NCBI GenBank assembly: GCA_005893225.1
Contig: VBOT01000029.1
Coordinates: 1 to 59,954 of the forward strand
Direction: 5' to 3'
DNA: 59,954 nt
Source of the DNA: Candidatus Eiseniibacteriota bacterium
GTDB lineage: Bacteria > Eisenbacteria > RBG-16-71-46
The translations under genes and the position numbers were made by a program. Below, one piece after another: positions 1-41,022 of the stretch (its first letter is position 1; every line of letters starts with the position of its first letter). The notes beneath the pieces were generated by a model, which was not told the origin of the DNA, made no database searches, and saw nothing but the letters and a program-made list of their open reading frames with translations.

Positions 1-92
1 CTCACACTTCGACCGGCTCGGCGTTCCTCGCCTGGCCGGCCGCTGAACCATCGAACCGCCGGATGCGGACCCGCATGTCCGGTGGTGTGGGA

Positions 93-122
93 GGGGGTTA
101 GCGGGACGAACCCGCTACCCCC
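93..122 (-). terminator. GC-rich hairpin downstream of the histidine phosphatase gene (possible terminator)
   Basis: The inverted repeat gggggttagcggg / cccgctaccccc has a 5-nt loop and lies about 30 nt past the stop at 154. No clear U-tract follows it. Confidence 0.3.
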
Positions 123-153
123 TATCCCGATCTAACCCGACCATGAAGAGGGG

Positions 154-4219: not shown

Positions 4220-6001
4220 TCACCGCCCGGCGGCGACCGCCGCCTTCTGCAGGCGCTGCTCGAGGGCCGCCAGGTCTTCCCTGAGTCCCTGGGGAAGACG
4301 CGGCTCGAACCTCGCCAGGTGGCTCTTGATCGCGGGCAGCTCGGCCATCCACCCCTCGACGTCGACCCGCAGCAGCTCGGCCATGCTCGAGTCGGGAATC
4401 CTCAGGCCCGAAAGGTCCAGGGCCCCGGGCGCAGGAAGTCTCCCGATCGGGGTCTCGACGGCCTTCCCCGTCCCCTCGGTTCGCTCGAAGATCCACTTGA
4501 GCACGCGGCTGTTGTCGCCGTAGCCGGGCCACAGGAACCTGCCGTCGGGGTCCTTGCGGAACCAGTTGACGTGGTAGATGCGGGGTAGCTGGGCCGGATC
4601 GGCGGAAGCGCCGATCCTGAGCCAGTGGGCGAAGTAATCCCCCATGTGATAGCCGCAGAACGGCAGCATCGCGAACGGATCGAAGCGCAGCCGGCCGACC
4701 GCTCCGGCCGCGGCGGCGGTGGTCTCGCTGCTCATGATCGAGCCCAGGAAGGTCCCGTGCCGCCAGTCGAGGGCCTCGTTCACGAGCGGCACGACGCCGG
4801 CCCGCCGGCCGCCGAAGAGGATCGCCGAGATCGGAACGCCCTTCGGGTTCTCCCATTCGGGAGAGATCACCGGACATTGCCGGGCCGGCGTGGTGAAGCG
4901 GGCATTGGGGTGCGCGGCCGTCCGCCCGTTGCCGGGCGCCCACGGGCGGCGCAGCCAGTCCACCAGCTCAGGCGGCGGCGCCTCGGTCATCTCCTCCCAC
5001 CACACGTCGCCGTCGGGCGTGATCGCGCAGTTGGTGAAGATCGAGTTCTCCCGGCAGGTCCGCAGGGCGTTGGGATTGCTCCTCATGCTGGTCCCGGGAG
5101 CGACCCCGAAGAAGCCGGCCTCGGGATTGATCGCGTGGAGCCTCCCGTCGGCCCCGAACTTCATCCACGCGATGTCGTCGCCGATGGTCTCGACCCGCCA
5201 GCCGGGGAGCGTGGGGTTCATCATCGCCAGGTTGGTCTTGCCGCAGGCCGAGGGGAACGCCGCCGCCATGTAGGCCTTCCGCCCCTCGGGGTTGGTGATG
5301 CCGAGGATCAGCATGTGCTCGGCGAGCCACCCCTCGTCGCGCGCCTGGACCGAGGCGATGCGCAGGGCGTGGCACTTCTTGCCGAGCAGGGCGTTGCCGC
5401 CGTAGCCGGAGCCGAACGACCAGATCTCGCGTGTCTCCGGGAAGTGGCAGATGTACTTCGTGCCCGTGTTGCAGGGCCAGGGCGAGTCGGCGGCGTGCTC
5501 GGCCAGCGGGGCGCCGACCGAGTGCAGGCCCCGCACGAACTCTCCGTCCGGTCCCAGCGCCTCGAGCACCGGGGCGCCGACCCGCGCCATGATGTGCATG
5601 CTGGCGACGACGTAGGGCGAGTCCGTCACCTGGACTCCGACCTTGGCAATCGGAATCACGTAGAGGGTGCGGCCCTTCATGGCGCCGCTGAAGAGCTGGG
5701 TCAGCGTGCGCTTCATCTCGGCCGGGTCGCGCCAGTGATTGGTCGGCCCCGCGTCACCCTGCTGCCGCGAGCAGATGAAGATGAACTCCTCCACGCGCGC
5801 GACGTCGGCCGGGTCGGAGCGGACGAAGATGCTGTTGGGACGCCTCTCGCCATCGAGCCGGATGGCGGTTCCCGCCTGCACGAGCAGCCGCAGCATCAGC
5901 TGGTACTCGTGGTCCGAGCCGTCGCACCACACCACGCGCTCGGGCTGGCACATGGCGGCCGTTTCCTGCACCCAGACTTCGAGCTTCCGATTCTCGGTCA
6001 T
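4220..6001 (-). CDS. pckG: Phosphoenolpyruvate carboxykinase (GTP)
   Basis: The sequence is very close to GTP-PEPCKs, with [41 protein letters not shown] and [10 protein letters not shown] prefer the ATG at 6001 ([10 protein letters not shown]). A GTG at 6052 is an alternative start. Confidence 0.9.
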
Positions 6002-6134
6002 GCGGTTGGTCTCGATCAGGCGATGCCGTTTGGGCAAAGTGAAGCGCGCCACGAGCCTCGCGGCCGGCGCGTGATACTACCCGATCGCTCGGACATCGCA
6101 ACCACCTCCGACGATCGGCATCGCCGGGCCATCT

Positions 6135-6380
6135 CTACGATCGCTTGACCCTGTTCCGCACAGCCGCGAGCACGGACCCGACTGACGGCAGGACGCCGAG
6201 GAAGCCGAGCGTTCCACTCTGCGCCACGACCTCTCCATCGACCAGCACCTTGAACTCCCCGTAGCGTCCGCTCACCATCTCGACCGCTTCACCCAGCTCC
6301 TTCCGGATTCGCGCCGCCGCCCGGGCGGCGAGGAGGGAAGTGACTCAGTAGGTGCAGTAGCGGATCGTGACTCGGTTCAT
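6135..6380 (-). CDS. SelW/SelT/SelH (Rdx) family selenoprotein, with in-frame TGA = Sec at 6345..6347
   Basis: My own translation is MNRVTIRYCTYU VTSLLAARAAARIRKELGEAVEMVSGRYGEFKVLVDGEVVAQSGTLGFLGVLPSVGSVLAAVRNRVKRS. The CxxU motif sits where Rdx proteins have CxxC/U. AGGAGG lies 7 nt upstream of the ATG. Coding-like sequence continues for 69 codons past the TGA. Confidence 0.75.
6300..6340 (-). promoter_or_regulatory. Candidate bacterial SECIS hairpin for the SelW-like gene
   Basis: The structure starts 4 nt after the UGA. The outer stem is CUUCC/GGAAG and the inner stem is CGCCGCC-[CGGGC]-GGCGGCG, with a G-rich apical loop about 25 nt downstream of the UGA. Confidence 0.5.
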
Positions 6381-6422
6381 GGGATCCTCCTTTCGTGGCC
6401 TGGAACGCCCTCGCGCACCCGT

Positions 6423-7211
6423 TCAGGAGGGCTCGAGGCGGGAGAGCCAGGCTTCCACGGACTCCGCCAGCTCGTCGAGCACCTGCTCGCCGGTCCTGCC
6501 CGAGCGCTTGAGCACCCCGAACGAGTGGTCCGCGCCCTCCACGACGTGGAGCGTGGGGCGATCGCCCAGGCGATCCAGGACCCCCCGCAGCAGCGCCAGG
6601 TCGGCGAAATCGTCACGCGTCCCCTGCAGGAACAGCATGGGCACGGTCACGTCCTCGAGGTGTCGGGCCCGGGTGACCGAAGGTCGGCCCGGCGGATGGA
6701 GCGGGAACCCGAGGAAGACCAGGCCGCGCACCGAGGGCAGCGCCCCTTCCGCGATGGCGGTCGAGGTCATGCGGCCGCCGAACGACTTTCCCCCCGCGAC
6801 GAGCGCCGCCCCCGGGCAGCACCGGGAGGCTTCGGTCACCGCCGCTCGCACCGCGGCGACGGCCACCGGCGGCGGATCGGGCCGGCTGCCTCCCCGTTCC
6901 ATGTAGGGAAACTGGTAGCGAAGGGTCGCGATGCCGCGTCCCGCCAGTCGCTCGGCCATCGCCGCCATGAACGGATGTCTCATCCCCGCACCCGCGCCGT
7001 GAGCGAGGACGTAGAGCCATCGAGCCTCACCGGGCACGAGGAGGAGCCCCGAGACCTCTCCGTGGGGGCCGGCGCTGAAACGGATCGACTCCGGTGGCGC
7101 CGGCGCCGGGACTCCGCGAGGCGCGGGATGGATACCCGAGCCGGGACCCTCCGTCGTCGGCGCGCCCATCGGGGTGCCAGGACTGTCGTCGCGAGCGTGC
7201 CGGGGCGGCAT
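6423..7211 (-). CDS. Alpha/beta hydrolase (dienelactone-hydrolase / KANL3-like)
   Basis: This is the last 262 codons of the 898-aa track ORF. It has a nucleophile elbow GKSFGG and HGAGAG, followed by a D...H region. The ATG at 7211 shares one base with the TGA of the upstream gene. Confidence 0.8.
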   Translation of the reverse strand: MPPRHARDDSPGTPMGAPTTEGPGSGIHPAPRGVPAPAPPESIRFSAGPHGEVSGLLLVPGEARWLYVLAHGAGAGMRHPFMAAMAERLAGRGIATLRYQFPYMERGGSRPDPPPVAVAAVRAAVTEASRCCPGAALVAGGKSFGGRMTSTAIAEGALPSVRGLVFLGFPLHPPGRPSVTRARHLEDVTVPMLFLQGTRDDFADLALLRGVLDRLGDRPTLHVVEGADHSFGVLKRSGRTGEQVLDELAESVEAWLSRLEPS

Positions 7212-9019
7212 CAGCGTCGGACCCGCAGCTCGTCCAGCGGCCGCACCTCCCCGCCGCGGATCACGTAGCGGATCCGCCGCAGGTTCGCGACCCCGGCCAG
7301 CGGGTCGGCGGCGACCACCAACAGGTCCGCCGCCTTCCCCGGCTGTACGGTCCCGAACTCGTCGAGCTTCCCCATCGCCAGCGCCCCGCCCCGCGTCGAG
7401 GCCACGATCACCGCCATCGGGGAGAGACCGGCCGCCTGCATGGCTTCCATCTCCGCGTGGACCGACAGTCCGTGCAAGGTGAGCGGGTTTCCCGCGTCGG
7501 TTCCCATCGCGATCGGGATCCCCGCCCTGTGGACCCGGACGAGGTTCGCCGCCATGATGCCCCGCAACTGGGCCAGCCCCGAGGGGTCCGCGCCCCGCGA
7601 CGGATCGAGCCGCCCGGCGCCGACCGCCGGAGTGCTCGCGATGTGCGCGAGGGTCAGGGAGTCCACGCAGCCCAGGGGATCGTCGATCGCGGGCGGCTTG
7701 CCGGTCCGGACCGATTCGTACACGCGAGCGTAGCCGTCGGCCACCGTCAGGGTCGGGCAGTAGATGGCGTGGCCGGCACGCGCGAGACGGATGAACTCCT
7801 CGTCCACCGGCCGGTCCCACACGCTGTGCACGAGCACCTTCGCCCCCGCCCGGAGCGCCGCCTTGGCCTCGCGAAGTCCGGTGGCGTGAACGATGAGCGG
7901 GAGCCCCGAACGCCGCGCTTCGTCTCCCGCCGCGGCCACCGCGCGGGCCATCTCGTCGAAGTCGCGACCCGGCGCGATGATGAACCACACCTTGACGGCC
8001 GCCGACCCCAGAGACTCGAGATAACGCACGCCGTCGCGCGCCACGGCCTCGTCCTTCAAGTAGATGAACTGCCGCTCGGCGGGAAGGTTGAGCCAGAAGT
8101 CGAGGGTCGAAAGCAGCGGGCCCGCGGCCGCCACGTGCGGGGCGCGCGGGTCCCCTCGGGCCTGGCGCTGCATCGCCACCGTCCACGGGTAGCCGCCGAC
8201 GTCGAACACCGCCGTCACGCCCGAGCACAGATAGCTCCTGAACCAGGTTTCCGGATGCGAGCGCAGGCGCTCCTCGACCTGCTCGTAGGGGTAGACGTCG
8301 CGGGCATCGAGGGCGTCGGGCCGGCCGTCGACCCAGCCGGTCTGCGAGAAGTGGACGTGGGCGTCGACCAGGCCGGGCGTGATCCAGAGGCCGCCGAGGT
8401 CGAGCGTGTCCACTCCCGCCGGCACGCGGCACCGGGTGCGCGGCCCGGCGCATTCGATCTTCCCGTCGCGCAGCACCACCACCGCGTCGCGGACCGGGGG
8501 CTTCCCGGTGCCGTCGATGAGCGTGGCGCCGACCAGGGCCCGGGGCGGAGGCGGCGTCCCGGGAGGCGCCGGAAACGCGGTGGTGACGGCGATCCGCCAG
8601 CCGCGCGGCGTGCTCACGAACAGGCGCTCCGAGAGCCCCGACTGCTCGTCCTCTCCGTAACGCACGCGGTAGCGATAGGTCCCGTAGACGATGCCCTCGC
8701 GGACCGGGGCGAGCTTCAGGTCCGAGGCGTCGAAGAAGTCCGGCCAGTCGTTGGCGCCGGTACGATCGGCCAGATCCTTGAAGCCGAGCCTGAACCCCAC
8801 GGGCCCGGTGCGGGCCAGGGAATCCGACTCGAGGTAGCAGGCGAGATAGGCGGCTCGGTCCCGGCGGCGGATCGCATCCAGGTTGGTCCGAAAGAGCGCC
8901 CGCGCGGCGCCGAGGTCGGGGCTCTGGCGCTCGACGCCCCGGGCGGCGGTGGGTGGAGCGGCGAGCACGCCGATCCCCACGACCAGCAGGCCCCGTTCGA
9001 ACGCCGTTCGAAGGTTCAT
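7211..9019 (-). CDS. Secreted amidohydrolase with an N-terminal NTF2/SnoaL-like domain
   Basis: The protein has a signal-like N-terminus and a metal-binding VDAHVHF motif. LIVHATG and MGTDAGN motifs typical of the imidazolonepropionase/prolidase-like amidohydrolase superfamily follow. Both ends overlap their neighbours by 1-4 nt. Confidence 0.85.
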   Translation of the reverse strand: MNLRTAFERGLLVVGIGVLAAPPTAARGVERQSPDLGAARALFRTNLDAIRRRDRAAYLACYLESDSLARTGPVGFRLGFKDLADRTGANDWPDFFDASDLKLAPVREGIVYGTYRYRVRYGEDEQSGLSERLFVSTPRGWRIAVTTAFPAPPGTPPPPRALVGATLIDGTGKPPVRDAVVVLRDGKIECAGPRTRCRVPAGVDTLDLGGLWITPGLVDAHVHFSQTGWVDGRPDALDARDVYPYEQVEERLRSHPETWFRSYLCSGVTAVFDVGGYPWTVAMQRQARGDPRAPHVAAAGPLLSTLDFWLNLPAERQFIYLKDEAVARDGVRYLESLGSAAVKVWFIIAPGRDFDEMARAVAAAGDEARRSGLPLIVHATGLREAKAALRAGAKVLVHSVWDRPVDEEFIRLARAGHAIYCPTLTVADGYARVYESVRTGKPPAIDDPLGCVDSLTLAHIASTPAVGAGRLDPSRGADPSGLAQLRGIMAANLVRVHRAGIPIAMGTDAGNPLTLHGLSVHAEMEAMQAAGLSPMAVIVASTRGGALAMGKLDEFGTVQPGKAADLLVVAADPLAGVANLRRIRYVIRGGEVRPLDELRVRR

Positions 9020-10656
9020 TTTCGGGCGGCCGCCGCCTCGCGACGGACCAGGACCAGCGTGATGTCGTCGGTGCGCGGAGCGCCCGCCAGGAAGTCGTCG
9101 ACACGCCCGAGGATCCCACCCCGCAGCGCTTGAAGGTCCGCCGTCGCCCCCTCGGCCAGCAGCGCCTCGTGGAGCCTCCGGTCGTCGAAGAACTCCTCGC
9201 CGCGCTGCGCCTCGGGGATCCCGTCGCTGAACAGCGCCAGCAGCTCTCCGGGCGCGAGGGTCACGGTCGCAGACGAGTAGGGAAAATCCGGCAGCACTCC
9301 GAAGGGAACCCCAATGGCCGGGAGCTCGCGGAGTGTCGGGCCGAGCACGAGGCAGGGCGAGGGATGGCCGGCGTTGACGTATTCCAGGACACCCGTCGCC
9401 GGGTCGAGCCGGCCCACGAACCCGGTCACGAAGTGTCTCGCGTCGGTGCCGCGGTTGAGGATCGTCCCGAGACGGCGCGCGAGATCGGCGGGGTCGGGGC
9501 AGGTGTCGTAGAGGACGCGCGCCGAAGCCAGGAACGAGGACATGAGGAGCGCCGCCCCCATTCCCTTTCCGGTCACGTCCCCGACCACCATCAAGAGCTT
9601 CCCGTCCGCGCCCAGGTAGAAGTCGTAGAGGTCCCCTCCGACCTCGTTGCAGCTCTCCAGGAACGCGTCGATCCGGTAGCCCTCGACCTCGGGCGGTCGA
9701 GCCGGCAAGAGGCCGCGCTGGATGCGGGTCGCGGTCGCCAGCTCCTGTGCCATCCTGAGCCGCGCCTGCTCGGCCTCGAGCAGCCGGGCGTTGGTGATCT
9801 TCACCGCCGCCATGTTGGCCAGCAGCGTCAAGAGCTCGAGTTGGTCCTCGCTGAAGGAGACCGAGAGGTCCTGGCTGTCGACGTAGATCAGCCCCAGGAC
9901 CCGCTGGTTGTCGAACAGCGGCACCGCCATCGCGGAGCGCACCGCCTGGGCGACGATGCTGTGCTGGGCCTGGAACCTGGGGTCGTGCGCGGTGTCCCCG
10001 GTCAGCACCGAGGTGCAGTCCTCGAGCACCGTCCGCATGATCGAGCGCGAAAGGGCCAGCGGCTGGTTCGCCCGGCCCTGGCGGGTGCGGGCCGCGACCT
10101 GGACCGGCTCCTCGCGGTCCTCCTGCTTGAGGAGCAGGACGTAGCGCGATGCCGGCACGGCCTTCTCGACGAACACCAGGAGCTCCTCGCAGGTCTCCTG
10201 GAGGGGCCGCGGCAGCACCAGCAGCCGCCCGGCCTCGGCGAGCAGGTGGACCATCTCGCCGGCGGCCTCGCCGGTGCGGGCGCGCCGGTCGAGGATGTGG
10301 TCGACGCGCAGCTTGAGCGACGAGCCCACCACGGCGGCGTCACTGAGGCGAACCTCCGGCCCTGGCTCCCGGTCGGTCACTCGCAGCAGCAGATGCCCCA
10401 CCTCGATCTGGTCTCCGGACTTGAGCTCGACCGGCTCGCGCGCCTCGACGCCGTTCACGCGCGTGCCGTTGCGGCTGCCGAGGTCGCGGATGAAGTACCG
10501 GTCGCCGCGCCGGGTCACCTCGGCGTGCTCCTTGGATACCGTGGCGTCGGGAACGTGGATGCCGTTCTTGGAGGACCTGCCGATGCTCTTGATCTCGGCA
10601 TCGAGCGGCCAGACCAGGTTCTCGTCGCCCACGGTGCCGGACAGGTAGAGGGTCAT
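9016..10656 (-). CDS. FHA - GAF - PP2C/SpoIIE-type protein phosphatase
   Basis: An N-terminal FHA domain (SIGRSSKNGIHVPDATVSKEHAEV...RDLGSRNGTRVNG) is followed by a central GAF-like region. The C-terminus is SpoIIE/PP2C-like (RIQRGLLP...GGDLYDFY...VGDVTGKG...TDGI). Confidence 0.9.
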   Translation of the reverse strand: MTLYLSGTVGDENLVWPLDAEIKSIGRSSKNGIHVPDATVSKEHAEVTRRGDRYFIRDLGSRNGTRVNGVEAREPVELKSGDQIEVGHLLLRVTDREPGPEVRLSDAAVVGSSLKLRVDHILDRRARTGEAAGEMVHLLAEAGRLLVLPRPLQETCEELLVFVEKAVPASRYVLLLKQEDREEPVQVAARTRQGRANQPLALSRSIMRTVLEDCTSVLTGDTAHDPRFQAQHSIVAQAVRSAMAVPLFDNQRVLGLIYVDSQDLSVSFSEDQLELLTLLANMAAVKITNARLLEAEQARLRMAQELATATRIQRGLLPARPPEVEGYRIDAFLESCNEVGGDLYDFYLGADGKLLMVVGDVTGKGMGAALLMSSFLASARVLYDTCPDPADLARRLGTILNRGTDARHFVTGFVGRLDPATGVLEYVNAGHPSPCLVLGPTLRELPAIGVPFGVLPDFPYSSATVTLAPGELLALFSDGIPEAQRGEEFFDDRRLHEALLAEGATADLQALRGGILGRVDDFLAGAPRTDDITLVLVRREAAAARK

Positions 10657-10907
10657 GGGCCGTCGCCCAGGTCGCGCACCAGCGTCCGGGCCGCTTCCTT
10701 GCTGAGCGAGATTCGCGGCAGGGCCAGCACCTCGAGCGTTCGCCGCCCGTCGACGCCGACCAGCGTGACGCGGTCGCCCGGCCGCACGCCGTGGCTCGGC
10801 TTCACCACCTCGCCGTTCAGCAGGACCGCGCCGTCCTGAACGGCCAGGCTCGCCTGGGACCGGCTCTTGAACAGCCTGAGCTCGAAGAGCGTCACGTCGA
10901 GGCGCAT
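10653..10907 (-). CDS. S4-domain RNA-binding protein (Hsp15-like)
   Basis: The 84 aa are MRLDVTLFELRLFKSRSQASLAVQDGAVLLNGEVVKPSHGVRPGDRVTL. The gene overlaps the downstream FHA gene by ATGA. Confidence 0.75.
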   Translation of the reverse strand: MRLDVTLFELRLFKSRSQASLAVQDGAVLLNGEVVKPSHGVRPGDRVTLVGVDGRRTLEVLALPRISLSKEAARTLVRDLGDGP

Positions 10908-10960: not shown

Positions 10961-12340
10961 TCAGGGAGACGCCTGGAGCTTCTTCTTGATCGAGGCGATC
11001 GTGGATTCGGAGCGCTGGCCCTCGGGCATCGCCTCGGCGGCGCTCAGCGCCTCTTCCAGCGTCCGCCTCGCCGACCCCGCGTCGCCGCGGCCCGAGTAGA
11101 TGTCCGCGCGCGTCTGGAGGATCCCGAGACGGCGCGGCCCGTAGGCCTTGGAGAGTGCCCGGTCCGAGGCCGCCAGTGCGTCGTCCCAGCGCTTCATGGC
11201 CTTGAGCGCCACCGCCAGGCGGGCGGGCGGGTTGTAGTCGCCGGGCAGGTCCCGCTCCGAGGCCTCGAGCATCGGGATCGCGCGCTTTGGCTCCCCGAGC
11301 TTGAGGTAGGCGCTCAGGCGATGCGGGTCGAACACCGCGCGCTCCTCGGGAGTTCGGGCCCGGGCGGCCTCGCGCTCGAGAAACGCCGCCCACTCGGAGG
11401 CCACCTGCTTCGCGCCCTGATCGTCCTTGGCGTCCTCGCGGGCGTCGAGCAGGCTTCCGAAGGCCCCGGAGCGGTCGTCCGCCGCCATGGGCGCCGTCGT
11501 GTCCGCGACCACCTCGCGCGCGTCCGCCTCGAGGGCCGCGACCAGCTCCTGGCGCGCCGCGCTCTCCGCCGGCAACTCGAGAGCCGCGTCGAGACCGCTC
11601 GCCGCCACGTTCGCCGCGGACGGCGTGCTTCGAAGCCTGGGATAGGCCTCGCGGGCGAGCTTCGCCGCCTCCTCGCTGGCTTGGGTCCTCTGCAGCGCGA
11701 ACAGCAGCGACTCGACCGTCCGGCCGTAGCGGCCCCACCCCTCGGGTGCGGCCGCCAGCGCCTCCTGATAGGCCTTGGCGGCGCCGGCGTTGTCGCCCTG
11801 CCCGTAGAGAGCGTCGGCGCGGAGCAGCAGGCGATCGGCCTCGGGAGGGCGATCTCCGGAGGATGCTCCCGCGCGGCCCGCGGGCTCCGGCCCGCCTCCG
11901 GCGACGGCGAGGCGGCCGTCGTCCAGCAGTCTCCTGAGCTGGGACGCGGTCGCTCCGCCCACCCAGCGCAACGCCACATTCTGCTCGGCGGGATCGACGA
12001 TCAGGAACGTCGGCAGCGCCTCGATGGGGAACTGCTTACGGAACGGCGCGTTCCTGGACTTCTCGGTGTCGATCTCGAGCCAGACGAACCGCCCGGCCTC
12101 GCTCGCGAGGGACTTGTCGGTGAAGACGAAGGCCCTCATCGAGCGGCAGGTGTGTCACCAGGGCGCCCAGGCCTCGATGAAGAGAGGCACCTTGCGCGCT
12201 CGCGCCTCGGCGAGCGCCCTGCCGTAGTCGTCCTGGATGAACCGGAAGACCCGGGGCGGGGCCGCGACGCCGCCCGAGCGAGCCGGGCTCGCGAGGGCCG
12301 CGAGCGCCAGGGGGAGCAGGAACGCGGGATGCGACTTCAC
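10961..12340 (-). CDS. Secreted thioredoxin-fold (Thioredoxin_7-like) + TPR selenoprotein, with in-frame TGA = Sec at 12155..12157 (UxxC)
   Basis: Track ORFs 12155..12613 and 10961..12139 are in the same frame, separated only by one TGA plus 5 codons. Read through, the sequence is ...KVPLFIEAWAPW-U-HTCRSMRAFVFTD..., i.e. the WCxxC thioredoxin motif with Sec in first position. The GTG start at 12340 gives a signal peptide VKSHPAFLLPLALAALASPARS. TPR-like repeats follow. Confidence 0.7.
12107..12137 (-). promoter_or_regulatory. Candidate SECIS hairpin for the thioredoxin-like selenoprotein
   Basis: The sequence GAGGG-C-CUU-C-GUC [UUCACC] GAC-AAG-U-CCCUC begins 17 nt after the UGA. It is a bulged stem with a 6-nt apical loop. 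Confidence 0.4.
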
Positions 12341-12445
12341 GCGCGGAACGCTACCAGATAGCCTGTCCGTGCGCCACCGCCGCGCCCGCGCGCCATCAGG
12401 GCCATGGGCGCGCCCTCGTGGCGCCCGTACCGATGGGGGCCGACC

Positions 12446-12829
12446 ATGGCCGATCTGCCGGACGAGGAGCAACTCCTGAGGCACTTCGAATGGAACCGGG
12501 AGCTGCTCCGCGAGATCGCCGCGATGTTCGTGAGCGACGCTCCCGGGATGATGCGCGATGTCTCCGGCGCGGTGGACCATGGCGACGCGCCGCTCCTCCG
12601 TCAGGCCGCTCACAAGCTCAAGGGCTCGGTCGCGAACTTCCGGGCTCAGGCGGCGGTCGAGGCCGCGCTCCGGCTCGAGCGCATGGGCGCCTCCGGGGAC
12701 TTGATGGGCGCCCGCGAGGCGTGTCGGGCGCTCGAGGTCGAGGTCATGCGACTGCGCGAGAGGCTGGGCGAGATGTGTGTGACGCCGGAGCGAGGGACGG
12801 CCGGGGGCGCCGAGGAGGATCGGGGCTAG
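12446..12829 (+). CDS. Stand-alone Hpt (histidine phosphotransfer) domain protein
   Basis: The MADLPDEEQLL start is followed by the Hpt signature AAHKLKGSVANF in a four-helix-bundle-like sequence. It is transcribed divergently from the thioredoxin-like selenoprotein gene. Confidence 0.8.
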   Translation: MADLPDEEQLLRHFEWNRELLREIAAMFVSDAPGMMRDVSGAVDHGDAPLLRQAAHKLKGSVANFRAQAAVEAALRLERMGASGDLMGAREACRALEVEVMRLRERLGEMCVTPERGTAGGAEEDRG

Positions 12830-19683: not shown

Positions 19684-22600
19684 CTATCGTAGTTTTCTAC
19701 GAGTTCGTAGATTTCTACGAGATCCGCCGAATCCGTGCTTTCGCATGCGGTAGCGAATCGTGGGCTCCGGCAGACCGAGTTCGCGGGCGGCGAGGCTCTG
19801 ATTGCCGCCGGCACGTCTCAGCGCCTCTTTGAGCAGGCGCTTTTCGAGATCCTCGACCAGGTCCGAGAGACGCTTACCCCTGGCGAGCCTCATCGTCCCG
19901 GCCCGCTCCTCGAGATCGCGCGGGAGCGGAGAGGGATAAAGCACCCCCCCGGGGTTCATCGCGATCACGCGCTCGATGTAGTTCTGGAGCTCCCGGACGT
20001 TCCCGGGCCAGTCGCTCTGCATCACGGCGGCCAGGAACTCGGGGGAGAGCTCCGGCATCTCGCGCTCGAGACCGCGCGCGAACTGGGCCACGAAGTGCTG
20101 TACCAGCGCCGGGATGTCGGCCTTGCGCTCTCTGAGCGGCGGCACCTCGATCGGGATCACGTTGAGCCGGTAGAAGAGGTCCTCCCGGAAGGCGCCGTCC
20201 TCGATCTGCCGCCTCAGATCCCGGTTGGTGGCCGCGATGATGCGCACATCGACCGGAAGCGACTTCCCCCCGCCCACCGGCGTGATCTCGCGGTTCGCGA
20301 TCGCCGAGAGCAGCGCCACCTGCTGCTTGAGCGGCATGTCGCCCACCTCGTCGAGGAACAGCGTCCCCCCGTCGGCCTGCTTGAAGCGCCCCTCACGCCC
20401 GCGCACGTCGGTCGCCACGTTCGGCAAAATGCCGAACAGCTCGGTCTCGAGCAGCGTTTCGGGAATCGCGCCGCAGTTCACCGCCACGAACGGGCGCAGC
20501 CGTCGCTTGCCGCCGTGATGAAGGATGCGCGCGATCAGCTCCTTGCCGGTGCCGTTCTCCCCCGTCAGGAGCACCGTGCTACTGGTGTGGGCGGCCCGCT
20601 CGACCAGGGGCATGATGCGCATCATGGCCGAGCTCGTCCCGATCAGGCGGTGCGACTGGAACTTCACCACCGCCTCCTGCCGCAGCGAGAGGTTCTCGCG
20701 CACCAGGTTCTCGTTGGTCCGCTGCGCCTCCTCGTGACCCCGGGCCTTCTCGATCGCCACCGCCATGAGGTGCGCGAAGCCTTCGATCAGCCCCCGCTCG
20801 GCGTCCCCGAACGCCAGCGAGCGGCGCGAGTCGTCGAGATAGACCGCCCCGATCACCCGGCCGGAGAGGTACATGGGGACACACAGGATCGACCGGAGGT
20901 GCAGGTTGTCCACGCTCTCGAACGCCACGCGGGCGTCGCGCCGCGCGTCCTGGATCAGCAGGCTCCCTCGGCTCTCGGCCACGCGCTGCACCACCCGGCG
21001 GCTGTAGCCCACCGCGTCGCGGCGCATCGCCGCGTCGACCGCGCCGTGCTCCACCAGCGGGACGAGCCGGCCGCTCTCGTCATCGGCGAGCAGCAGCACT
21101 CCGCGCTCCGCATCCAGCTGCTCGACCACCATCTCCATCGCGCGCTGGCCGAGCTCGCGCAGGTCGGAAAGCGAATGCAGCAGCTCGCCCACGGAGCGGA
21201 TCAGGTCGTGATCGTGCGGCAGGACCGACGTCCGCGCCGACGAGCGGCGCAGCCAGGTGACGAGCAACGTGAGCGCCCGCTCGCGCCCGCGGCGGTCGCC
21301 GAGGCGCTCGTAGGCCGCGACCGCTTCCTCCAGCCACTTCCCCACCGCGGGCTGCCGGTCCGCCCCCGATTCGATTGCCACCTGCCCGAGCTCGGTGGCC
21401 GCGGCCGCGCGATCGGGCGGGGCGGGCAAAGCGAGGAGCCGCGCCAGGCATTTCTCGCCCGCGCCGATCCCCTCGGTGAAGCGCCCCGCCACGAAGGCTA
21501 CCTCGGCCCGGAGCTGCTGGACCAGCGCCTCCGCGTAAGGCCGGACGTCCGATCCCTCGAGCAGTCGCTCGGCATCCTCCAGCCTCCGGGCGCCCAGCTT
21601 CGCGTCTCCACGTCTGAGAGCCGCGCGGCCCGCCAGGGAGCGGATGACGGCGCCGACGGAGCGCTGCCCGGGCGAAGCCTGGCCGGCGCGATCGCACACC
21701 TCCTCGGCTTCCTCCCAGCGGCGCTGGGCCATCAAGGTGCGGGCGAGCTCGACACGACACCACTCCAGCTCGTTGGAGAGCCGCGACGCGGTGGCGAGCT
21801 CCAGGGCGCGGCGCGCCGTTCGCTCGGCTCCCCGCAGGCGCCCGGCGCACCGGCAAGCTCCGGCCAGGGCCCGCCAGGCCGAGGTCTCGAGGGCCGGCAG
21901 GTGCGCGCGCGTGAGCCGGATCGCGGCCCGCGCCTGGCGCGCGGCGTTCCGCGGGCGCCCCGTCATGGCATCGGCGTGCGCCAGGTTCGTGATCGCCGCC
22001 GCGGCGTCCCGGGCCCGCCCGTCCTCGAGTGCCATCCGGGCCACCTCGGCGTTGGCCTCGCGCATGCCCTTCCAGTCGCCGGATTCCCAGAGCAACACGC
22101 CCAGGTTGATGAGCAGCTCGCCGGCCGCGAGCCTGAGTCCGGCCGCCCGGGCGCGCCCGAGCGCCTCGCGATAGAGGCGCTCGGCCTCCGCGGGCCGCCG
22201 GCACGCGTGGGCGGCGACTGCCTGCACGCCGATCGCGCGCACCTCGCCCTGGAGCTGTCCGGCGCGCTTGAAGGCATCGACCGCTCGCGCCGCCATCGAC
22301 TCGGCGGCGTCGAGGTCGCTGGCCAGAAGCGAAAACGCGAGGGAGGTCGCCGACATCCCGAGCGCCTCGGGGTCCTGGGCCTCCTCGGCCAGGGCCAGCG
22401 CCTCGCGCGCGGCGATCGCGCCGGCCTCGACCTTCCCCAGGCTCTTCAGCCGCGCCGACTCGTTGGTGAGAAGCCGCGACCGAAGCCCGGGCGCGGCGTC
22501 GGCGAGCACGATGCCCTCCACGCCGGCCCGCTCCAGCAGGCCGGCGCGGAGACCGGCGGTGGAAAGGAGATAGCGGCGCTCGAGCCACGGTCCGGCCTCG

Positions 22601-24840
22601 CTTTCCAGCTCGAGAGCGCGCTCGAGATGGGGAATCGCGTCCGAGTAGCGACCCTGGGCGAAGAGCTCCCGGCCGGCCCGCTCGTGCCAGTGGGCCGCTT
22701 GCTCGGGAACCTCGGTCTCGGCCAGCGTGGCGGCCGCCTCGGCCAGCGCGGCGTTCCCACCCGAGCCCAGCGCCTCCGCCGCGGCCGAGAGCGCCGCCCT
22801 CGCATCTCCCGCGCCACGCAGGTGCCTGAACCTCTCCTCTGCCCCGAGCCCGGGCTCGGCCAGGATCGCGCGGTGGAGGGCGCGCCGCCTCTCGTCGCCA
22901 GCCGCCCCGAGGACCCGATCGGCGAAGGTCTGCGAGGGGAGCGCGATCTGGCCCGGGGCGGGCGTCCGCGCGAGGCCCACCCGGACCAGGAGAGCGAGCG
23001 TCTCGGGGCAGGCCGCCGACTCGATGCGCAGCGCCTTCTCGGGATCGACGGGACGCCGCCAGGCGGCCAGGGCTTCCGCCGCCCGGCGCGCGCTCTCCGG
23101 GAGCTCCAGGAATCTCTCGAGCAGCATCGGCTCGAACCCGACGGCGGCGGCCAGACCCTCGAGCGCCCTCATGTCCACCACCAGGCCCGCGCCGACCTCG
23201 GCGAGCGTCCCGCGCTCGGCGGCGAGATGCAGAACCTGGACCGTGAGCCCCGGATGCCCCGACGCCCGTTCCCACAGGAACGAGACGAGGCGATCCGGGG
23301 CCGGGTCGCCGAGACGGGCCGAGGCCAGCCTCGCCACATCGTCCTCGCCGAGGAAACCGAGCTCGACCGTGTCGGCCACCCCCGCGTCGCTCAGGAGTCG
23401 AGCCTCATCGTCGAGCTCGCCCGGGCCGGGCCGAGAGGCGATCACCCACGCTGCCGCTGGAAGGCCGGGCTCGAGGACCCAGCGGCGGATCAGAGCGCGA
23501 GCCAGTGGGTCGAGGCGATCGCCATCGTCGAGGAGGAACACAGGTGCTCGGTCGCCGAGGACCGAGACGCAGTCCGCCATCGCCTGGAGCATCGCTTCGA
23601 GATCGTGCTCGGACGGGGCGCTCGCGGTCGCCGGGGTTCCGGCCGCAGGCTCCCCGACATCCGTTCCGGCAGGGGGCGCGGGGTGCCTCGCCTGCACTTC
23701 CAGCTCCAGCCTGCGTAGCAGCGCCCGGGCAACGCCGCCCGGTCCCTCGAACCCATCGCAAGAGACGTGAACTGCCGGCCGGCCGGAGAGACTCGCCCGC
23801 GCGCTCAGCTCGCGAAGCACGGCCGACTTTCCGACCCCCGCCTCGCCCGAGATGACGACCAGGCGCGACCGCCGCCGCGCCCCCCGCTCGCTCGGGCCGG
23901 GAGCGACGAGCCGCTCCAGCGCGGCGAGCTCCCGCTCGCGGCCCACCACCACTTCGGTCCCGAGCCGCTCGCTCAGCGGCCGGCGCACGGCGGGATCGAT
24001 GCCCTCGATCTCGCGGCGCACCTCCCGGGCGTCGCTCGGCCTCTCGCGGGGCTCGGGCGCCATCAGACGCAGCACCAGCTCGACCCAGGCCAAGGGCGCC
24101 CCAGCCTCGGCCAGCGGCAAGCCGGACGGGGGACCCTCCTGCTGCAGGCCGAGAAGCCGCTCGGTCGATTCCGCCTCGAAGGGAGGGCGGCCGCAGGTCA
24201 GGGCGTAGAGGCACGCGCCCAGCCCGTAGAGATCCGAGGCCACGCTCGGCGGCTCGCCCCTCACCAGCTCCGGCGCCGCGAAGCCGGGCGTGCCGCGGTG
24301 ACCGCGGCTCACCGCCTCAATCGAGGCGCAGAAGCCGAAGTCCACGAGCCTCACGCCGCGAGGACGCCGATCGCCGGCCTCGCCCTCGAGGACCAGGACG
24401 TTCGAGGGCTTGAGGTCCCCGTGCAGCAATCCGGCCGAGTGCAGCGCCTCGAGGCCGTGGGCGACCTCGTGGCCGGCGGTCAGCAGTGCGGGCCAGTCGC
24501 CCCGGCGGATGGCCTTGTCGGCCGGGGCGCCCGGCACGAATTCCATGGTGTAGAAGGGGGTCCCGTCGGGGGACGTGCCGAGCTCGTAGACCGCGACCAC
24601 CGAGGGGTGCCGGAGGCGCGTGAGCCCGGCGAACTCGTTCCGGAGCTCGTCGAGCGCCCCGGTGGGGCTCCGGAGCCGCTTGAGCGCGCATTCCTTTCCG
24701 GTCGCGAGGTCTCGCGCCCGGAACACTTCGCCCCTGCCACCCTGCCCGAGTCGCTCCATCAGGACGAAACGCCCGGCGAAGGCTTGATCCAAAGCCGCTC
24801 CTCCTCCCGCCCCGAGACCGGCGGGCCTAGCCCGGATCAT
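19684..24840 (-). CDS. Ser/Thr protein kinase - P-loop STAND (AAA_16-like) - TPR - GAF - sigma54-activator AAA+ - Fis-type HTH fusion protein (1718 aa)
   Basis: The kinase region has GQGGRGEVF, ALKRL, HGDLKPSN, DFG and GTPGFAAPE. The STAND P-loop is ISGEAGVGKS. A long TPR-like helical region and a GAF-like region follow. The EBP core has LLTGENGTGKE, GGTLFLDEVGDM and RIIAATNRDL. The C-terminal HTH is SLAARELGLPEPTIRYRMRKHG. Confidence 0.9.
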   Translation of the reverse strand: MIRARPAGLGAGGGAALDQAFAGRFVLMERLGQGGRGEVFRARDLATGKECALKRLRSPTGALDELRNEFAGLTRLRHPSVVAVYELGTSPDGTPFYTMEFVPGAPADKAIRRGDWPALLTAGHEVAHGLEALHSAGLLHGDLKPSNVLVLEGEAGDRRPRGVRLVDFGFCASIEAVSRGHRGTPGFAAPELVRGEPPSVASDLYGLGACLYALTCGRPPFEAESTERLLGLQQEGPPSGLPLAEAGAPLAWVELVLRLMAPEPRERPSDAREVRREIEGIDPAVRRPLSERLGTEVVVGRERELAALERLVAPGPSERGARRRSRLVVISGEAGVGKSAVLRELSARASLSGRPAVHVSCDGFEGPGGVARALLRRLELEVQARHPAPPAGTDVGEPAAGTPATASAPSEHDLEAMLQAMADCVSVLGDRAPVFLLDDGDRLDPLARALIRRWVLEPGLPAAAWVIASRPGPGELDDEARLLSDAGVADTVELGFLGEDDVARLASARLGDPAPDRLVSFLWERASGHPGLTVQVLHLAAERGTLAEVGAGLVVDMRALEGLAAAVGFEPMLLERFLELPESARRAAEALAAWRRPVDPEKALRIESAACPETLALLVRVGLARTPAPGQIALPSQTFADRVLGAAGDERRRALHRAILAEPGLGAEERFRHLRGAGDARAALSAAAEALGSGGNAALAEAAATLAETEVPEQAAHWHERAGRELFAQGRYSDAIPHLERALELESEAGPWLERRYLLSTAGLRAGLLERAGVEGIVLADAAPGLRSRLLTNESARLKSLGKVEAGAIAAREALALAEEAQDPEALGMSATSLAFSLLASDLDAAESMAARAVDAFKRAGQLQGEVRAIGVQAVAAHACRRPAEAERLYREALGRARAAGLRLAAGELLINLGVLLWESGDWKGMREANAEVARMALEDGRARDAAAAITNLAHADAMTGRPRNAARQARAAIRLTRAHLPALETSAWRALAGACRCAGRLRGAERTARRALELATASRLSNELEWCRVELARTLMAQRRWEEAEEVCDRAGQASPGQRSVGAVIRSLAGRAALRRGDAKLGARRLEDAERLLEGSDVRPYAEALVQQLRAEVAFVAGRFTEGIGAGEKCLARLLALPAPPDRAAAATELGQVAIESGADRQPAVGKWLEEAVAAYERLGDRRGRERALTLLVTWLRRSSARTSVLPHDHDLIRSVGELLHSLSDLRELGQRAMEMVVEQLDAERGVLLLADDESGRLVPLVEHGAVDAAMRRDAVGYSRRVVQRVAESRGSLLIQDARRDARVAFESVDNLHLRSILCVPMYLSGRVIGAVYLDDSRRSLAFGDAERGLIEGFAHLMAVAIEKARGHEEAQRTNENLVRENLSLRQEAVVKFQSHRLIGTSSAMMRIMPLVERAAHTSSTVLLTGENGTGKELIARILHHGGKRRLRPFVAVNCGAIPETLLETELFGILPNVATDVRGREGRFKQADGGTLFLDEVGDMPLKQQVALLSAIANREITPVGGGKSLPVDVRIIAATNRDLRRQIEDGAFREDLFYRLNVIPIEVPPLRERKADIPALVQHFVAQFARGLEREMPELSPEFLAAVMQSDWPGNVRELQNYIERVIAMNPGGVLYPSPLPRDLEERAGTMRLARGKRLSDLVEDLEKRLLKEALRRAGGNQSLAARELGLPEPTIRYRMRKHGFGGSRRNLRTRRKLR
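19687..19720. repeat. Two tandem 16-bp palindromes (TCGTAG-N4-CTACGA) with 18-bp period
   Basis: The palindromes are tcgtagttttctacga (19687-19702) and tcgtagatttctacga (19705-19720). They overlap the last 12 codons of the giant kinase-EBP gene. A third half-site tttctacga lies at 19624-19632. Confidence 0.7.
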
Positions 24841-39390: not shown

Positions 39391-40317
39391 TCACTCGCCC
39401 CTGAGCGTCGCGCGCACGTCCGCCACCGCCAAGGCCGCGGCTCCGAACGCCACGGTGATGCCGAGAAGTGGGGGGCGCGTCACATCGCCCGCGGCCCAGA
39501 CGGCCGGCCGCGAGGCGCGATGCCTCGGGTCGACCCGGATGAATCCCTCCCCGTCGTGATCGAGCACCGCCCGGCACCACTCGGTGTTCGGGATCACCCC
39601 CACCTTGATCACCGCGCCCGAGGCCTTGCGGACGAACGGTCCGTCCGGGCCCTCGAGCTCCACGGCCTCCAGCCGATCCGCGCCGAGGAAGGCGTTCACC
39701 CGCACGCCCTCCACGACCTCGATGCTCCTCTCCCGCGCCACTCGATCGCGGAACTCGCGTCGGGCCCGCGGCTCCTCCAGCAGGGCCAGCAGCACGCGGC
39801 AGCCCGCCCCGGCCAGGATCAACGCGTTCTCGAACGCCCCATCCCCGCCTCCCACGACCACCACGTCGCGCCCCGCCAGGCTCCGGAGATCGCGAGTGGC
39901 CGAGTAGGAAACGCCCCGGTCCTCGAGCTCGCGTTCGCCCGGCACCTCGAGACACCGCCGGCGCACCCCGGTGGCGACCAGCACCGCATCCGCCTCGAAG
40001 CGCTCGCCCGCCGAGCTCTCGACCCAGGGTCGCCCCCGCGGATCCGCCGACCCGAGCGATGCGGCGGCCGTGTCGCAGCGCACCGGCACGCCGGAGTCCC
40101 GGAGCTGATGGGCGAAGGTCGCGGCGATCGCCGGCCCATCGCCGGCCGGGAGGCCCGGGAGCTCGCGCGGGTGGAAGTGGACATGATGGAGCTGTCCGCC
40201 CGGCGCGGGGCCCGCCTCGATCACCGAGACACCGAGGTCTCGCGAGAGCGCCCAGAGCGCCGCCGAGACGCCTGCCGGGCCCGCGCCGACGATCAGGAGC
40301 TCGGTCTCAGCGGCCAG
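39391..40317 (-). CDS. Thioredoxin-reductase-like FAD/NAD(P) oxidoreductase lacking the CxxC redox centre; start codon unresolved
   Basis: The frame reads ...TELLIVGAGPAGVSAALWA...GVSYSATRD (true TrxR has CATCD here)...VVVVGGGDGAFENA...AAGDV. No ATG, GTG or TTG precedes the GxGxxG motif. The 5-prime end given here (CTG at 40317) is a guess. Confidence 0.65.
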   Translation of the reverse strand: MAAETELLIVGAGPAGVSAALWALSRDLGVSVIEAGPAPGGQLHHVHFHPRELPGLPAGDGPAIAATFAHQLRDSGVPVRCDTAAASLGSADPRGRPWVESSAGERFEADAVLVATGVRRRCLEVPGERELEDRGVSYSATRDLRSLAGRDVVVVGGGDGAFENALILAGAGCRVLLALLEEPRARREFRDRVARERSIEVVEGVRVNAFLGADRLEAVELEGPDGPFVRKASGAVIKVGVIPNTEWCRAVLDHDGEGFIRVDPRHRASRPAVWAAGDVTRPPLLGITVAFGAAALAVADVRATLRGE

Positions 40318-40945: not shown

Positions 40946-41022
40946 TGGAGCGGAAGACGGGATTTGAACCCGCGACAACCACCTTGGCAAGGTGGGGCTC
41001 TACCGGGCTGAGCTACTTCCGC
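40946..41022 (-). tRNA. tRNA-Gly (anticodon GCC), CCA encoded
   Basis: The cloverleaf GCGGAAG-TA-GCTC-AGCCCGGTA-GAGC-C-CCACC-TTGCCAA-GGTGG-TTGTC-GCGGG-TTCAAAT-CCCGT-CTTCCGC-TCCA was folded by hand. Confidence 0.9.

Follow-up and report, generated by a model that had tools for sequence, protein, structure and literature searches.

Several bacterial selenoproteins carry a UxxC redox motif in a thioredoxin fold; they include Sec-thioredoxin (PF00085), the 'thiol:disulfide interchange protein' (PF13098), and DsbA-like and DsbG-like proteins (PMC13188914 Table 1, PMC1794560). The alignment of Sec and Cys at one codon is the classic signature by which selenoproteins are defined (PMC13188914). According to the bSECIS model quoted in the same paper, the apical loop is located 16-37 nt after the UGA, the MFE is -7.5 kcal/mol or lower, and one of the first two loop nucleotides is a G; some bSECIS elements do not conform to this model (PMC13188914). 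The combination of an N-terminal thioredoxin domain and a client-binding TPR domain has been described for the CnoX/YbbN chaperedoxins (PMC10998233, PMC8129009).

We analyzed a gene in a 59,954 nt stretch of DNA from a Candidatus Eiseniibacteriota bacterium, referred to as the window throughout. Its product resembles the bacterial UxxC selenoproteins in having a predicted Sec at the N-terminal Cys of CxxC, a thioredoxin fold, common Cys homologs, and a hairpin inside the coding region after the UGA, and, like the Dsb-like selenoprotein families, it is predicted to work outside the cytoplasm. In contrast to these proteins, it has a C-terminal conserved TPR superhelix of 300 residues and a domain of the Thioredoxin_7 / DsbD-gamma type. 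The score for PF13098, the family of the UxxC 'thiol:disulfide interchange protein' (representative WP_011366075.1), was borderline (27.4 bits versus a cutoff of 27). A Thioredoxin_7-type domain combined with a protein-interaction module is also found in the Trx7/PDZ family (NF041199), likewise a predicted selenoprotein. However, that family has a CxxU motif, with Sec in second place, and a PDZ domain, whereas UxxC and TPR were found here. Membership was rejected because of the UxxC motif, the missing PDZ domain, and the lack of an NF041199 match in NCBIfam at E <= 0.01. No NCBIfam model reached its cutoff on the window protein. Nor is the Thioredoxin_7-TPR selenoprotein architecture listed among the 119 prokaryotic selenoprotein families inventoried in 2026.

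By sequence, the closest solved structures were the DsbD gamma domain and the Bacteroides 'putative disulphide-isomerase' 2kuc, each of which is a periplasmic thioredoxin-fold domain with CxxC that belongs to the reductive pathway. They differ in having Cys instead of the Sec predicted here and in their low identity (profile E = 1e-9 to 1e-17), and the DsbD gamma domain is, in addition, tethered to a membrane domain and lacks TPR. The overall logic of a thioredoxin domain linked to a TPR domain is the same as in CnoX/YbbN, and this resemblance accounts for the JGI automatic name 'thioredoxin-like negative regulator of GroEL' of some homologs. CnoX, however, is cytoplasmic, has GroEL as a partner and lacks Sec, whereas the window protein has a signal-peptide-like N-terminus. 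Because of this N-terminus, and because neither YbbN nor CnoX was found among the PDB matches listed or the top 50 Foldseek matches, membership in this family was also rejected.

The gene is located on the minus strand, and its frame extends from a GTG (12340-12338) to a stop TGA (10963-10961), with the TGA at 12157-12155 as the sole internal one (Table 1). The initial annotation had described two ORFs of the track (12155..12613 and 10961..12139) as sharing a frame and being separated by a single TGA. Frame translation yielded the same arrangement and an identical junction, ...KVPLFIEAWAPW-TGA-HTCRSMRAFVF..., in which the context of the TGA is EAWAPW-TGA-HTCRSM. Full-length Cys homologs of 435-480 aa were colinear with the read-through product over its entire length, signal peptide included. 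In the start region around the GTG at 12340, we did not see a clear Shine-Dalgarno sequence. Beyond 12340, the upstream ORF is noncoding and runs antisense to an Hpt gene (12404-12829, plus strand).

Table 1. Predicted features of the gene, with positions in the window
Feature	Position	Strand	Basis and remarks
Complete gene, probable selenoprotein	10961..12340	-	459 codons plus stop, one internal predicted Sec-UGA; frame and colinear Cys homologs
Inferred GTG start codon	12338..12340	-	First start that gives the signal-peptide-like N-terminus MKSHPAFLLPLALAALASPA; homologs start equivalently
Signal-peptide-like N-terminus, aa 1-20	12281..12340	-	Reading of the sequence; putative cleavage after S-P-A
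Thioredoxin-fold domain, Thioredoxin_7 / DsbD-gamma type, aa 36-139	11924..12235	-	Pfam, PDB profiles, AlphaFold secondary structure
Predicted Sec-UGA codon, residue 62	12155..12157	-	Aligned codon is TGC/TGT at 42 loci of related species, TGA at 37
U-H-T-C redox motif (predicted)	12146..12157	-	Cys65 is the only cysteine of the protein
SECIS-like imperfect hairpin, ~22 bp	12093..12150	-	Core helix 12100-12145; folding, Sec/Cys contrast, covariation at three pairs
Apical loop UUCACC	12119..12124	-	Begins 30 nt past the UGA
All-helical TPR-type superhelix, aa ~165-459	10964..11848	-	Pfam TPR_12, invariant columns, AlphaFold, Foldseek

TGA is the usual stop codon in the window and terminates most of its coding-type ORFs, and therefore a reassignment of this codon was excluded. 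The whole window was scanned for TGA codons with 40 stop-free codons and coding-type GC3 on each side, and the TGA at 12157-12155 was the single match. An equivalent scan over ~520 kb of related loci yielded eight matches besides the gene under study. None of them was at a redox motif, and we read them as chance gene junctions.

For a comparison across species, 79 related loci were used, each from a different GTDB species. The codon at position 62 was TGA in 37 and TGC or TGT in 42 of them, exactly aligned, and the peptides upstream and downstream of it were conserved in the TGA group and the Cys group alike. The proposal that the TGA replaces the first Cys of WAPW-C-x-x-C agrees with the full-length Cys homologs, which read WAPWCHTC, and the motif of the family is WAPW-U-[HKP]-[TS]-C. 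In the 30 codons 5' of the UGA, divergence at third, first and second positions amounted to 0.38, 0.27 and 0.18, respectively, and the same order was observed in the Cys forms; no additional stop was present within 40 codons 5' of the UGA in the UGA forms. At the level of the compared sequences, purifying selection was evident on each side of the UGA. Two hallmarks of a selenoprotein were found: the in-frame UGA corresponds to Cys codons in homologs, and the protein sequence on each side of it is conserved in several organisms. Three clades are represented among the UGA forms, the Eisenbacteria-type, an Acidobacteriota pair, and the Anaeromyxobacteraceae, which implies several Sec/Cys switches. 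Carriers of the UGA form include the Eisenbacteria chromosome OY970178.1, DASXQT01, JANMQY01 and the Acidobacteriota assembly CAWGSA01. Downstream of the UGA, third-position divergence was 0.295 in the UGA forms versus 0.406 in the Cys forms, a difference that fits an RNA constraint superimposed on the coding sequence.

The initial annotation had noted a bulged hairpin that starts 17 nt after the UGA. The hairpin turned out to be real, but the distance of 17 nt marks the onset of an inner helix (UGAGGG/CCCUCG), while the whole helix begins after ~5-10 nt. A SECIS prediction on 12100-12155 had been suggested, and the hairpin found 3' of the codon was specific for the UGA forms. Over 81 nt, the window hairpin has a free energy of -38.2 kcal/mol (z = -2.69); over 62 nt, the MFE is -30.1 kcal/mol, with a loop of 6 nt and a spacing of 30 nt from the UGA, so that spacing and MFE lie within the limits of the bSECIS model. 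The loop UUCACC does not contain a G at its first two positions, and just 5 of the 38 UGA forms have such a G. Each of the 38 UGA sequences folds into a single hairpin whose apical loop follows the UGA at a distance of 28-32 nt; 19-23 pairs were counted in 37 of them, compared to a mean of 11 in the Cys forms. The mean MFE was -28.65 kcal/mol for the UGA forms (z -3.45) versus -17.47 kcal/mol for the Cys forms (z -0.09), at equal GC content (Mann-Whitney p = 8e-13), and the contrast persisted inside clades. Most Cys forms lack the hairpin that the Sec forms carry.

Column-wise covariation was modest, with double changes at 3 of 11 pairs, and an invariant GU (columns 34-35, nt +28/+29 after the UGA) was found in the 5' strand of the apical mini-helix, which comprises 3 bp. 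RNAalifold did not find a common structure for the 38 UGA-form sequences, as the lower helix is formed in a different register in each clade; therefore, folding of each sequence and a named core structure were used in its place. A bSECIS filter that demands an uninterrupted stem of 4 bp or more proved too stringent to be of use, and an Rfam search at permissive thresholds yielded no match to a SECIS family.

The predicted architecture of the protein was derived from profiles and a structural model. With U replaced by C, the Pfam model PF13899 (Thioredoxin_7) scored 41.3 bits (cutoff 27, E = 1.7e-10) and PF00085 scored 31.0 bits (cutoff 23.5, E = 2.6e-7), and PDB profiles matched 2kuc_A at 7.7e-17 and the C-terminal domain of DsbD at ~1e-9. 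The AlphaFold model of a Cys homolog (P0005, 64% identical to the window protein, pLDDT 90.7) has a strand at residues 60-65, followed by a helix at 70-79, with CHTC at 69-72. In agreement with the initial annotation, the part upstream of the TGA comprises, according to this model, the signal-peptide-like N-terminus and then a strand-helix-strand of the fold; the opposite arrangement, a thioredoxin domain that starts after the TGA, is contradicted by these data. The N-terminus is hydrophobic in nearly all full-length reconstructions of both Sec and Cys forms, and disordered in the AlphaFold model. P110 (window numbering) is invariant across the family and is presumed to be the cis-proline of the thioredoxin fold. 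The C-terminal two thirds had been described as TPR-like, and this was borne out by Pfam TPR_12 (38.9 bits, cutoff 30.1), by 17 helices after residue 165 in the AlphaFold model, and by Foldseek matches (probability 1.0) to TPR superhelices of both designed and natural proteins. Invariant motifs of this region are AADDRS, DxHR, DYNPP, YGPR and GQRS.

The internal TGA might have explanations other than selenocysteine. An error of sequencing or assembly that created a false stop has only the general error rate of metagenome assemblies in its favor, and its probability is negligible: the identical TGA is found in three independent ENA metagenome assemblies, with 0-2 mismatches across the 1380-nt gene, which excludes a sequencing error, and also in 37 other species, so that this explanation is already refuted. 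Inactivation of a former Cys gene by a change from TGC to TGA, followed by decay, would be in accord with TGA being a normal stop here and with every gene caller splitting the gene at this codon. However, a decaying gene is hard to reconcile with the same TGA in 37 other species from three phylum-level groups without more stops in the 40 upstream codons, with a coding-type substitution pattern on each side of the TGA, and with a hairpin that is maintained in the TGA forms only. The comparative data effectively refute a pseudogene, which we consider extremely unlikely. Taken together, the Sec/Cys pairing, the two-sided conservation, the UGA-specific hairpin and the replicated TGA argue for a UxxC selenoprotein instead.

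Termination at the TGA and separate synthesis of a TPR protein from the ATG at 12139 (Met68) is how the databases present the family: 176 of the 240 homologs listed start with the Met that closely follows the TGA, with 86 of 120 and 90 of 120 of the matches listed called from exactly Met68, and the C-terminal TPR domain could perhaps fold alone. Nevertheless, two products are very unlikely. Full-length proteins of the Cys type also have an invariant Met68, which is thus a structural residue rather than a start codon. No ribosome-binding site precedes the ATG, and the 61 codons upstream are conserved as protein. A product starting at Met68 would retain two thirds of the thioredoxin fold without its first strand-helix-strand, the nucleophile or the signal peptide. 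Read-through of the UGA without selenium, either by hairpin-stimulated insertion of Trp by a near-cognate tRNA or by insertion of Cys via the Sec pathway, would be compatible with a hairpin that breaks the loop-G rule of the SECIS consensus, but we regard it as improbable: Cys is the only residue aligned with the codon, which lies at the catalytic site of CxxC, where Trp would abolish catalysis, and SelA is present in three MAGs with the UGA form. We conclude that the sequence data very probably describe one functional gene whose product is an exported selenoprotein with TGA as the Sec codon; selenocysteine, specified by the in-frame TGA, is almost certainly the catalytic residue. The initial interpretation of a UxxC selenocysteine center in a Thioredoxin_7-type and TPR protein is supported by the Sec/Cys pairing, the fold and the hairpin.

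Genes for selA, selB, selD or tRNA-Sec were not found within the 60-kb window. With a sequence pattern specific for the SelA of Anaeromyxobacteraceae, SelA was detected in 3 of 13 assemblies of this family with the UGA form (MAGs CAVOWI01, CAVYBH01 and DATIUR01), one copy being frameshifted; Sec decoding is documented for Anaeromyxobacter dehalogenans (PMC1794560). The gene was not seen in any cultured Anaeromyxobacter. A DNA scan with a degenerate SelA motif yielded no Eisenbacteria record among the matches listed, a search for relatives from the Anaeromyxobacter SelA returned mostly Chloroflexota, and a protein search from a Gemmatimonadota SelA returned only Gemmatimonadota names. The neighbors in the window encode an S4 protein, an FHA-GAF-PP2C phosphatase, an Hpt protein and a GSDH/PKD protein. 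None of them recurs at the related loci, no neighbor family is common to several phyla, and no conserved context at these loci points to a pathway.

From the standard bacterial mechanism, we infer that the hairpin at 12093-12150 would act as a bacterial SECIS in translation and recruit SelB-GTP with Sec-tRNA(Sec) to the ribosome, whereupon the UGA at 12157-12155 would be decoded as selenocysteine. The 459-residue product would be exported via the Sec translocon by means of its N-terminal signal peptide. Outside the cytoplasm, U62-x-x-C65 would be the only redox pair of the thioredoxin_7 / DsbD-gamma-like domain. Sec62 might be the exposed nucleophile that attacks disulfides or oxidized cysteines of client proteins, after which a selenenylsulfide formed with Cys65 would allow the intermediate to be resolved. 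The highly conserved TPR superhelix may hold the client. The redox center would presumably be re-reduced by a membrane electron shuttle of the DsbD/CcdA type. The protein may thus combine the functions of an oxidoreductase and an interaction scaffold.

The thioredoxin-TPR family is widespread in soil bacteria. Among the database entries examined, it is represented only by truncated 'TPR repeat proteins', and the records starting at Met68, insofar as they bear a name, are called 'tetratricopeptide repeat protein' or 'hypothetical protein'. The signal peptide, the catalytic residue and a portion of the catalytic domain are missing from the truncated records, which a reading of the UGA as Sec would correct. 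On balance, though with some reserve, we favor the view that the proteins form an uncatalogued selenoprotein family, i.e., exported Thioredoxin_7-TPR proteins with WAPW-U-x-x-C in soil Eisenbacteria, Acidobacteriota and Anaeromyxobacteraceae, truncated in database entries, with a SECIS class that has a loop spacing of ~30 nt and lacks the consensus loop G. Within this analysis, it would also be the first sign of Sec decoding in Eisenbacteria; in the library searched, no paper names both Eisenbacteria and selenocysteine. Because the decoding mechanism is well known, as is the general chemistry, the finding is incremental rather than surprising. If true, it would add one more family to the catalogue of prokaryotic selenoproteins and extend the use of selenocysteine to Eisenbacteria-type soil bacteria. 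The repeated Sec/Cys switching in one orthologous family would offer a clean natural data set, which could be used to study the origin of SECIS elements inside coding sequences and the needs of SelB when a canonical loop G is lacking.

On the minus strand, the frame of the gene under study contains a single internal TGA, flanked by the peptide ...ARARKVPLFIEAWAPW-TGA-HTCRSMRAFVFTD..., and the view of the initial annotation that two ORFs share one frame split by a single TGA is borne out by this frame, which runs from GTG to the terminal TGA. The upstream ORF of the track extends past the GTG, where it is antisense to an Hpt-domain gene; this extension is a stretch open by chance. When the whole window was scanned for TGA codons with 40 stop-free codons and a coding GC3 signature on each side, the internal TGA was the sole match. 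The same scan of about 520 kb of related loci yielded eight matches besides the gene under study, none at a redox motif, and these were read as chance gene junctions. Three independent ENA metagenome assemblies carry the identical TGA, and their copies of the 1380-nt gene differ by 0-2 mismatches. Reassignment of the stop codon was considered as an alternative and ruled out, because TGA closes most coding-type ORFs in the window.

Coordinates of the features in the window and at related loci
Feature	Locus	Coordinates	Strand	Remarks
Group II catalytic intron match (Rfam RF00029)	window	54-131	+	at the very start; 42.2 bits, gathering score 40
FHA-GAF-PP2C(SpoIIE) phosphatase gene	window	9016-10656	-	overlaps S4-domain gene by 4 nt; amidohydrolase follows
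S4-domain protein gene	window	10653-10907	-	84 residues; starts 54 nt past selenoprotein stop
Gene under study	window	10961-12340	-	GTG at 12340; TGA at 10963-10961
Internal TGA	window	12157-12155	-	residue 62
Upstream ORF of the track	window	12155-12613
Hpt-domain gene	window	12404-12829
Multidomain signalling ORF	window	19684-24840	-	1718 codons
Polysaccharide synthesis and export cluster	window	~26000-58000
Thioredoxin-reductase-like Pyr_redox_2 gene	window	39391-40506		inside polysaccharide cluster region
tRNA-Gly GCC	window	40946-41022	-	sole tRNA in window
TGT codon in place of UGA	L023 (CAYNPF010000059.1)	1157
selA	L334 (CAVYBH010000015.1)	5658-6830
tRNA-SeC	L107	5369-5464		at start of open frame containing selA
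tRNA-SeC	L140	6230-6325

The standard basis for calling bacterial selenoproteins is Sec/Cys pairing together with a downstream hairpin (PMC13188914). Among the best 120 of 2465 homologs from a protein search, 32 were full-length proteins with the sequence PW-C-H-[TS]-C, and 86 started at a Met five residues past the TGA position. In a second search, seeded with an Anaeromyxobacter-type member, 90 of 120 entries were truncated, and none of the matches listed in either search carried a U or a selenoprotein name. Because the full-length Cys proteins also have an invariant Met68, this Met is a structural residue rather than a start codon. At the DNA level, with a single genome for each GTDB species, the motif was present at 79 loci; TGA occupied exactly the same codon in 37 and TGC or TGT in 42. 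The 30 residues upstream of the TGA were no less conserved than those downstream. Across the 30 upstream codons of the UGA forms, nucleotide divergence was highest at third positions (0.38), lower at first (0.27), and lowest at second positions (0.18), and the Cys forms showed the same order. This pattern is the signature of in-frame translation under purifying selection.

The region downstream of the UGA was compared between the two forms. In the window, the 81 nt from the codon preceding the UGA folded with -38.2 kcal/mol (z = -2.69). Each of the 38 UGA sequences contained one long imperfect hairpin from roughly nt +5 to +62, with 19-23 pairs counted in 37 of them and an apical loop starting 28-32 nt past the UGA, whereas the largest hairpin of the Cys forms averaged 11 pairs. 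For a 57-nt region, the mean MFE was -28.65 kcal/mol in UGA forms (z -3.45 versus shuffles, GC 0.68) and -17.47 kcal/mol in Cys forms (z -0.09, GC 0.67); the Mann-Whitney p of 8e-13 overstates independence, as the sequences are related. The contrast recurred within each clade: in the Eisenbacteria-type clade the Sec mean was -29.1, with Cys forms from -12 to -25 and one exception at -32; the Acidobacteriota Sec pair had -31 and -33, and sister Cys forms -15 to -29; the Anaeromyxobacteraceae mean was -31.3, and the Myxococcales Cys forms had -13 and -16. One TGT form among the UGA forms in the tree, L023, kept the hairpin (-25 to -32 kcal/mol), which looks like a recent Sec-to-Cys change. Two further Cys forms, L041 and L029, also had stable folds. 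Third-position divergence downstream of the codon was lower in UGA forms (0.295) than in Cys forms (0.406), as an overlaid RNA constraint would produce. These folds confirm the bulged hairpin proposed after the UGA in the initial annotation.

RNAalifold found no common structure across the UGA forms, because the codons that form the lower helix differ between clades: ACGUGCCGC is paired with GCGGCACG in most Eisenbacteria-type genes, and CAACUUCAUG with CGUGAAGUUG in Anaeromyxobacteraceae. In a named 11-pair core, 78% of cells were paired, versus 34-58% with the partner slid, and three of its pairs showed double changes. The window hairpin agrees with the bSECIS model in spacing (30 nt, range 16-37), loop length (6 nt, range 3-9), and energy (PMC13188914). 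It lacks the G that the model also specifies at the first or second position of the loop and that only 5 of 38 UGA forms have, and it had no match in Rfam; a subset of bacterial SECIS elements does not fit the model (PMC13188914). Together with the Pfam matches, the Sec/Cys pairing and the UGA-form hairpin uphold the earlier proposal of a UxxC thioredoxin-fold/TPR selenoprotein: the gene is almost certainly a genuine selenoprotein gene, split by gene callers.

In a neighbour-joining tree, the gene adjoins that of L001, an Eisenbacteria MAG, and UGA forms occupy three places: a large Eisenbacteria-type clade in which six Cys forms are scattered, an Acidobacteriota pair nested among Cys forms, and a clade of Anaeromyxobacteraceae, with UGA forms throughout. 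A 247-kb contig labelled 'Candidatus Saccharimonadaceae' (L017, DATJGS010000041.1) carries an Eisenbacteria-type UGA form that groups with Eisenbacteria, and appears to be mislabelled through a taxonomic or binning error.

No Pfam match to SelA, SelB, or SelD was found among 40 ORF translations of the window, which says little because 60 kb is about 2% of such a genome. A DNA pattern specific to Anaeromyxobacteraceae SelA matched 69 loci, three of them in assemblies that also contain UGA-form genes (CAVOWI01 with L063, CAVYBH01 with L059, and DATIUR01 with L069). Two of these SelA genes were intact across the stretch covered and 65-71% identical to an Anaeromyxobacter SelA. In the third, L334, from the MAG that carries L059, only the C-terminal 200 residues were in frame and the N-terminal half lay in another frame; the cause is an indel in the assembly or a real frameshift. 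Sec decoding is documented in Anaeromyxobacter dehalogenans, which has 11 selenoproteins (PMC1794560). Sec decoding thus appears to be available in one of the three UGA clades, and for the window's own clade we infer it. tRNA-SeC genes adjoin selA in two MAGs labelled 'uncultured Fibrobacterota', L107 and L140.

With the TGA translated as Cys, the product of 459 residues matched Pfam Thioredoxin_7 at residues 36-117 (41.3 bits, cutoff 27), Thioredoxin (31.0 bits), and TPR_12 (38.9 bits, cutoff 30.1). By sequence, the nearest solved structures were the Bacteroides 'putative disulphide-isomerase' 2kuc and the C-terminal thioredoxin domain of DsbD. The AlphaFold model of P0005, a 64%-identical Cys homolog (mean pLDDT 90.7, pTM 0.86), has a disordered N-terminus of 30 residues, a thioredoxin fold in the order strand-helix-strand-[CHTC]-helix-strand-helix-strand-strand-helix, a short linker of low confidence, and a TPR superhelix of 17 helices. 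The top 50 Foldseek matches were generic TPR superhelices only, with no thioredoxin-TPR structure among them. At the N-terminus, MKSHPAFLLPLALAALASPA-RS resembles a Sec-type signal peptide, and a signal-peptide-like start is shared by nearly all full-length sequences reconstructed at related loci, Sec and Cys forms alike. Cys65 is the sole cysteine, which leaves no redox pair other than U62/C65. Many charged and aromatic residues of the TPR part are invariant (motifs AADDRS, DxHR, DYNPP, YGPR, and GQRS), which suggests a specific binding site and not a generic scaffold.

In the mechanism that we propose, the hairpin would serve SelB as a SECIS, UGA 62 would be decoded as Sec, and the chain, still unfolded, would be routed by its signal peptide through the Sec translocon. 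Once in the periplasm, the TPR domain would hold client proteins, and Sec62 would attack their disulfides or oxidised cysteines. The mixed selenenylsulfide would be resolved by Cys65, and a DsbD/CcdA-type shuttle would recycle the redox centre. Given its DsbD-gamma/Thioredoxin_7 ancestry, the protein would more likely be a reductase or isomerase than an oxidase. No conserved neighbour gene was found: the window's neighbours are not kept at related loci, and no neighbour family spans phyla.

The order of the S4, phosphatase, and amidohydrolase genes is kept in the near-identical contigs L081-L084 and not at 80 related species loci. The signalling ORF joins modules for signalling and transcription in a fusion of unusual length (Ser/Thr protein kinase, AAA_16 ATPase, TPR, GAF, sigma-54 activator domain, and Fis-type HTH). 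The large polysaccharide cluster encodes several GT1/GT2/GT4 glycosyltransferases, a Wzy_C O-antigen ligase, Poly_export/SLBB, a DegT aminotransferase, nucleotidyl transferases, and an LPG_synthase_TM protein. The tRNA-Gly lies between the genes for GTP cyclohydrolase I and an amino-acid kinase, and open frames around these genes run over it.

Thioredoxin-fold proteins with UxxC or CxxU make up the majority of bacterial selenoproteins. The thioredoxin-TPR family is absent from the 119 families and subfamilies tabulated in a review (PMC13188914), where the nearest entries include Sec-thioredoxin (PF00085, UxxC) and a Trx7/PDZ protein (NF041199, CxxU), and no NCBIfam model matched at its cutoff (best match 31 bits, cutoff 125). 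A distant relation to the PF13098 selenoprotein family is possible. CnoX/YbbN has the thioredoxin-plus-TPR logic in common with the protein (PMC10998233), but is cytoplasmic and without Sec, and no relation to it was detectable among the PDB sequence matches listed or the top 50 Foldseek matches. In summary, the gene almost certainly encodes a well-known kind of selenoprotein that involves no new mechanism, and it belongs to a widespread family that is apparently uncatalogued.
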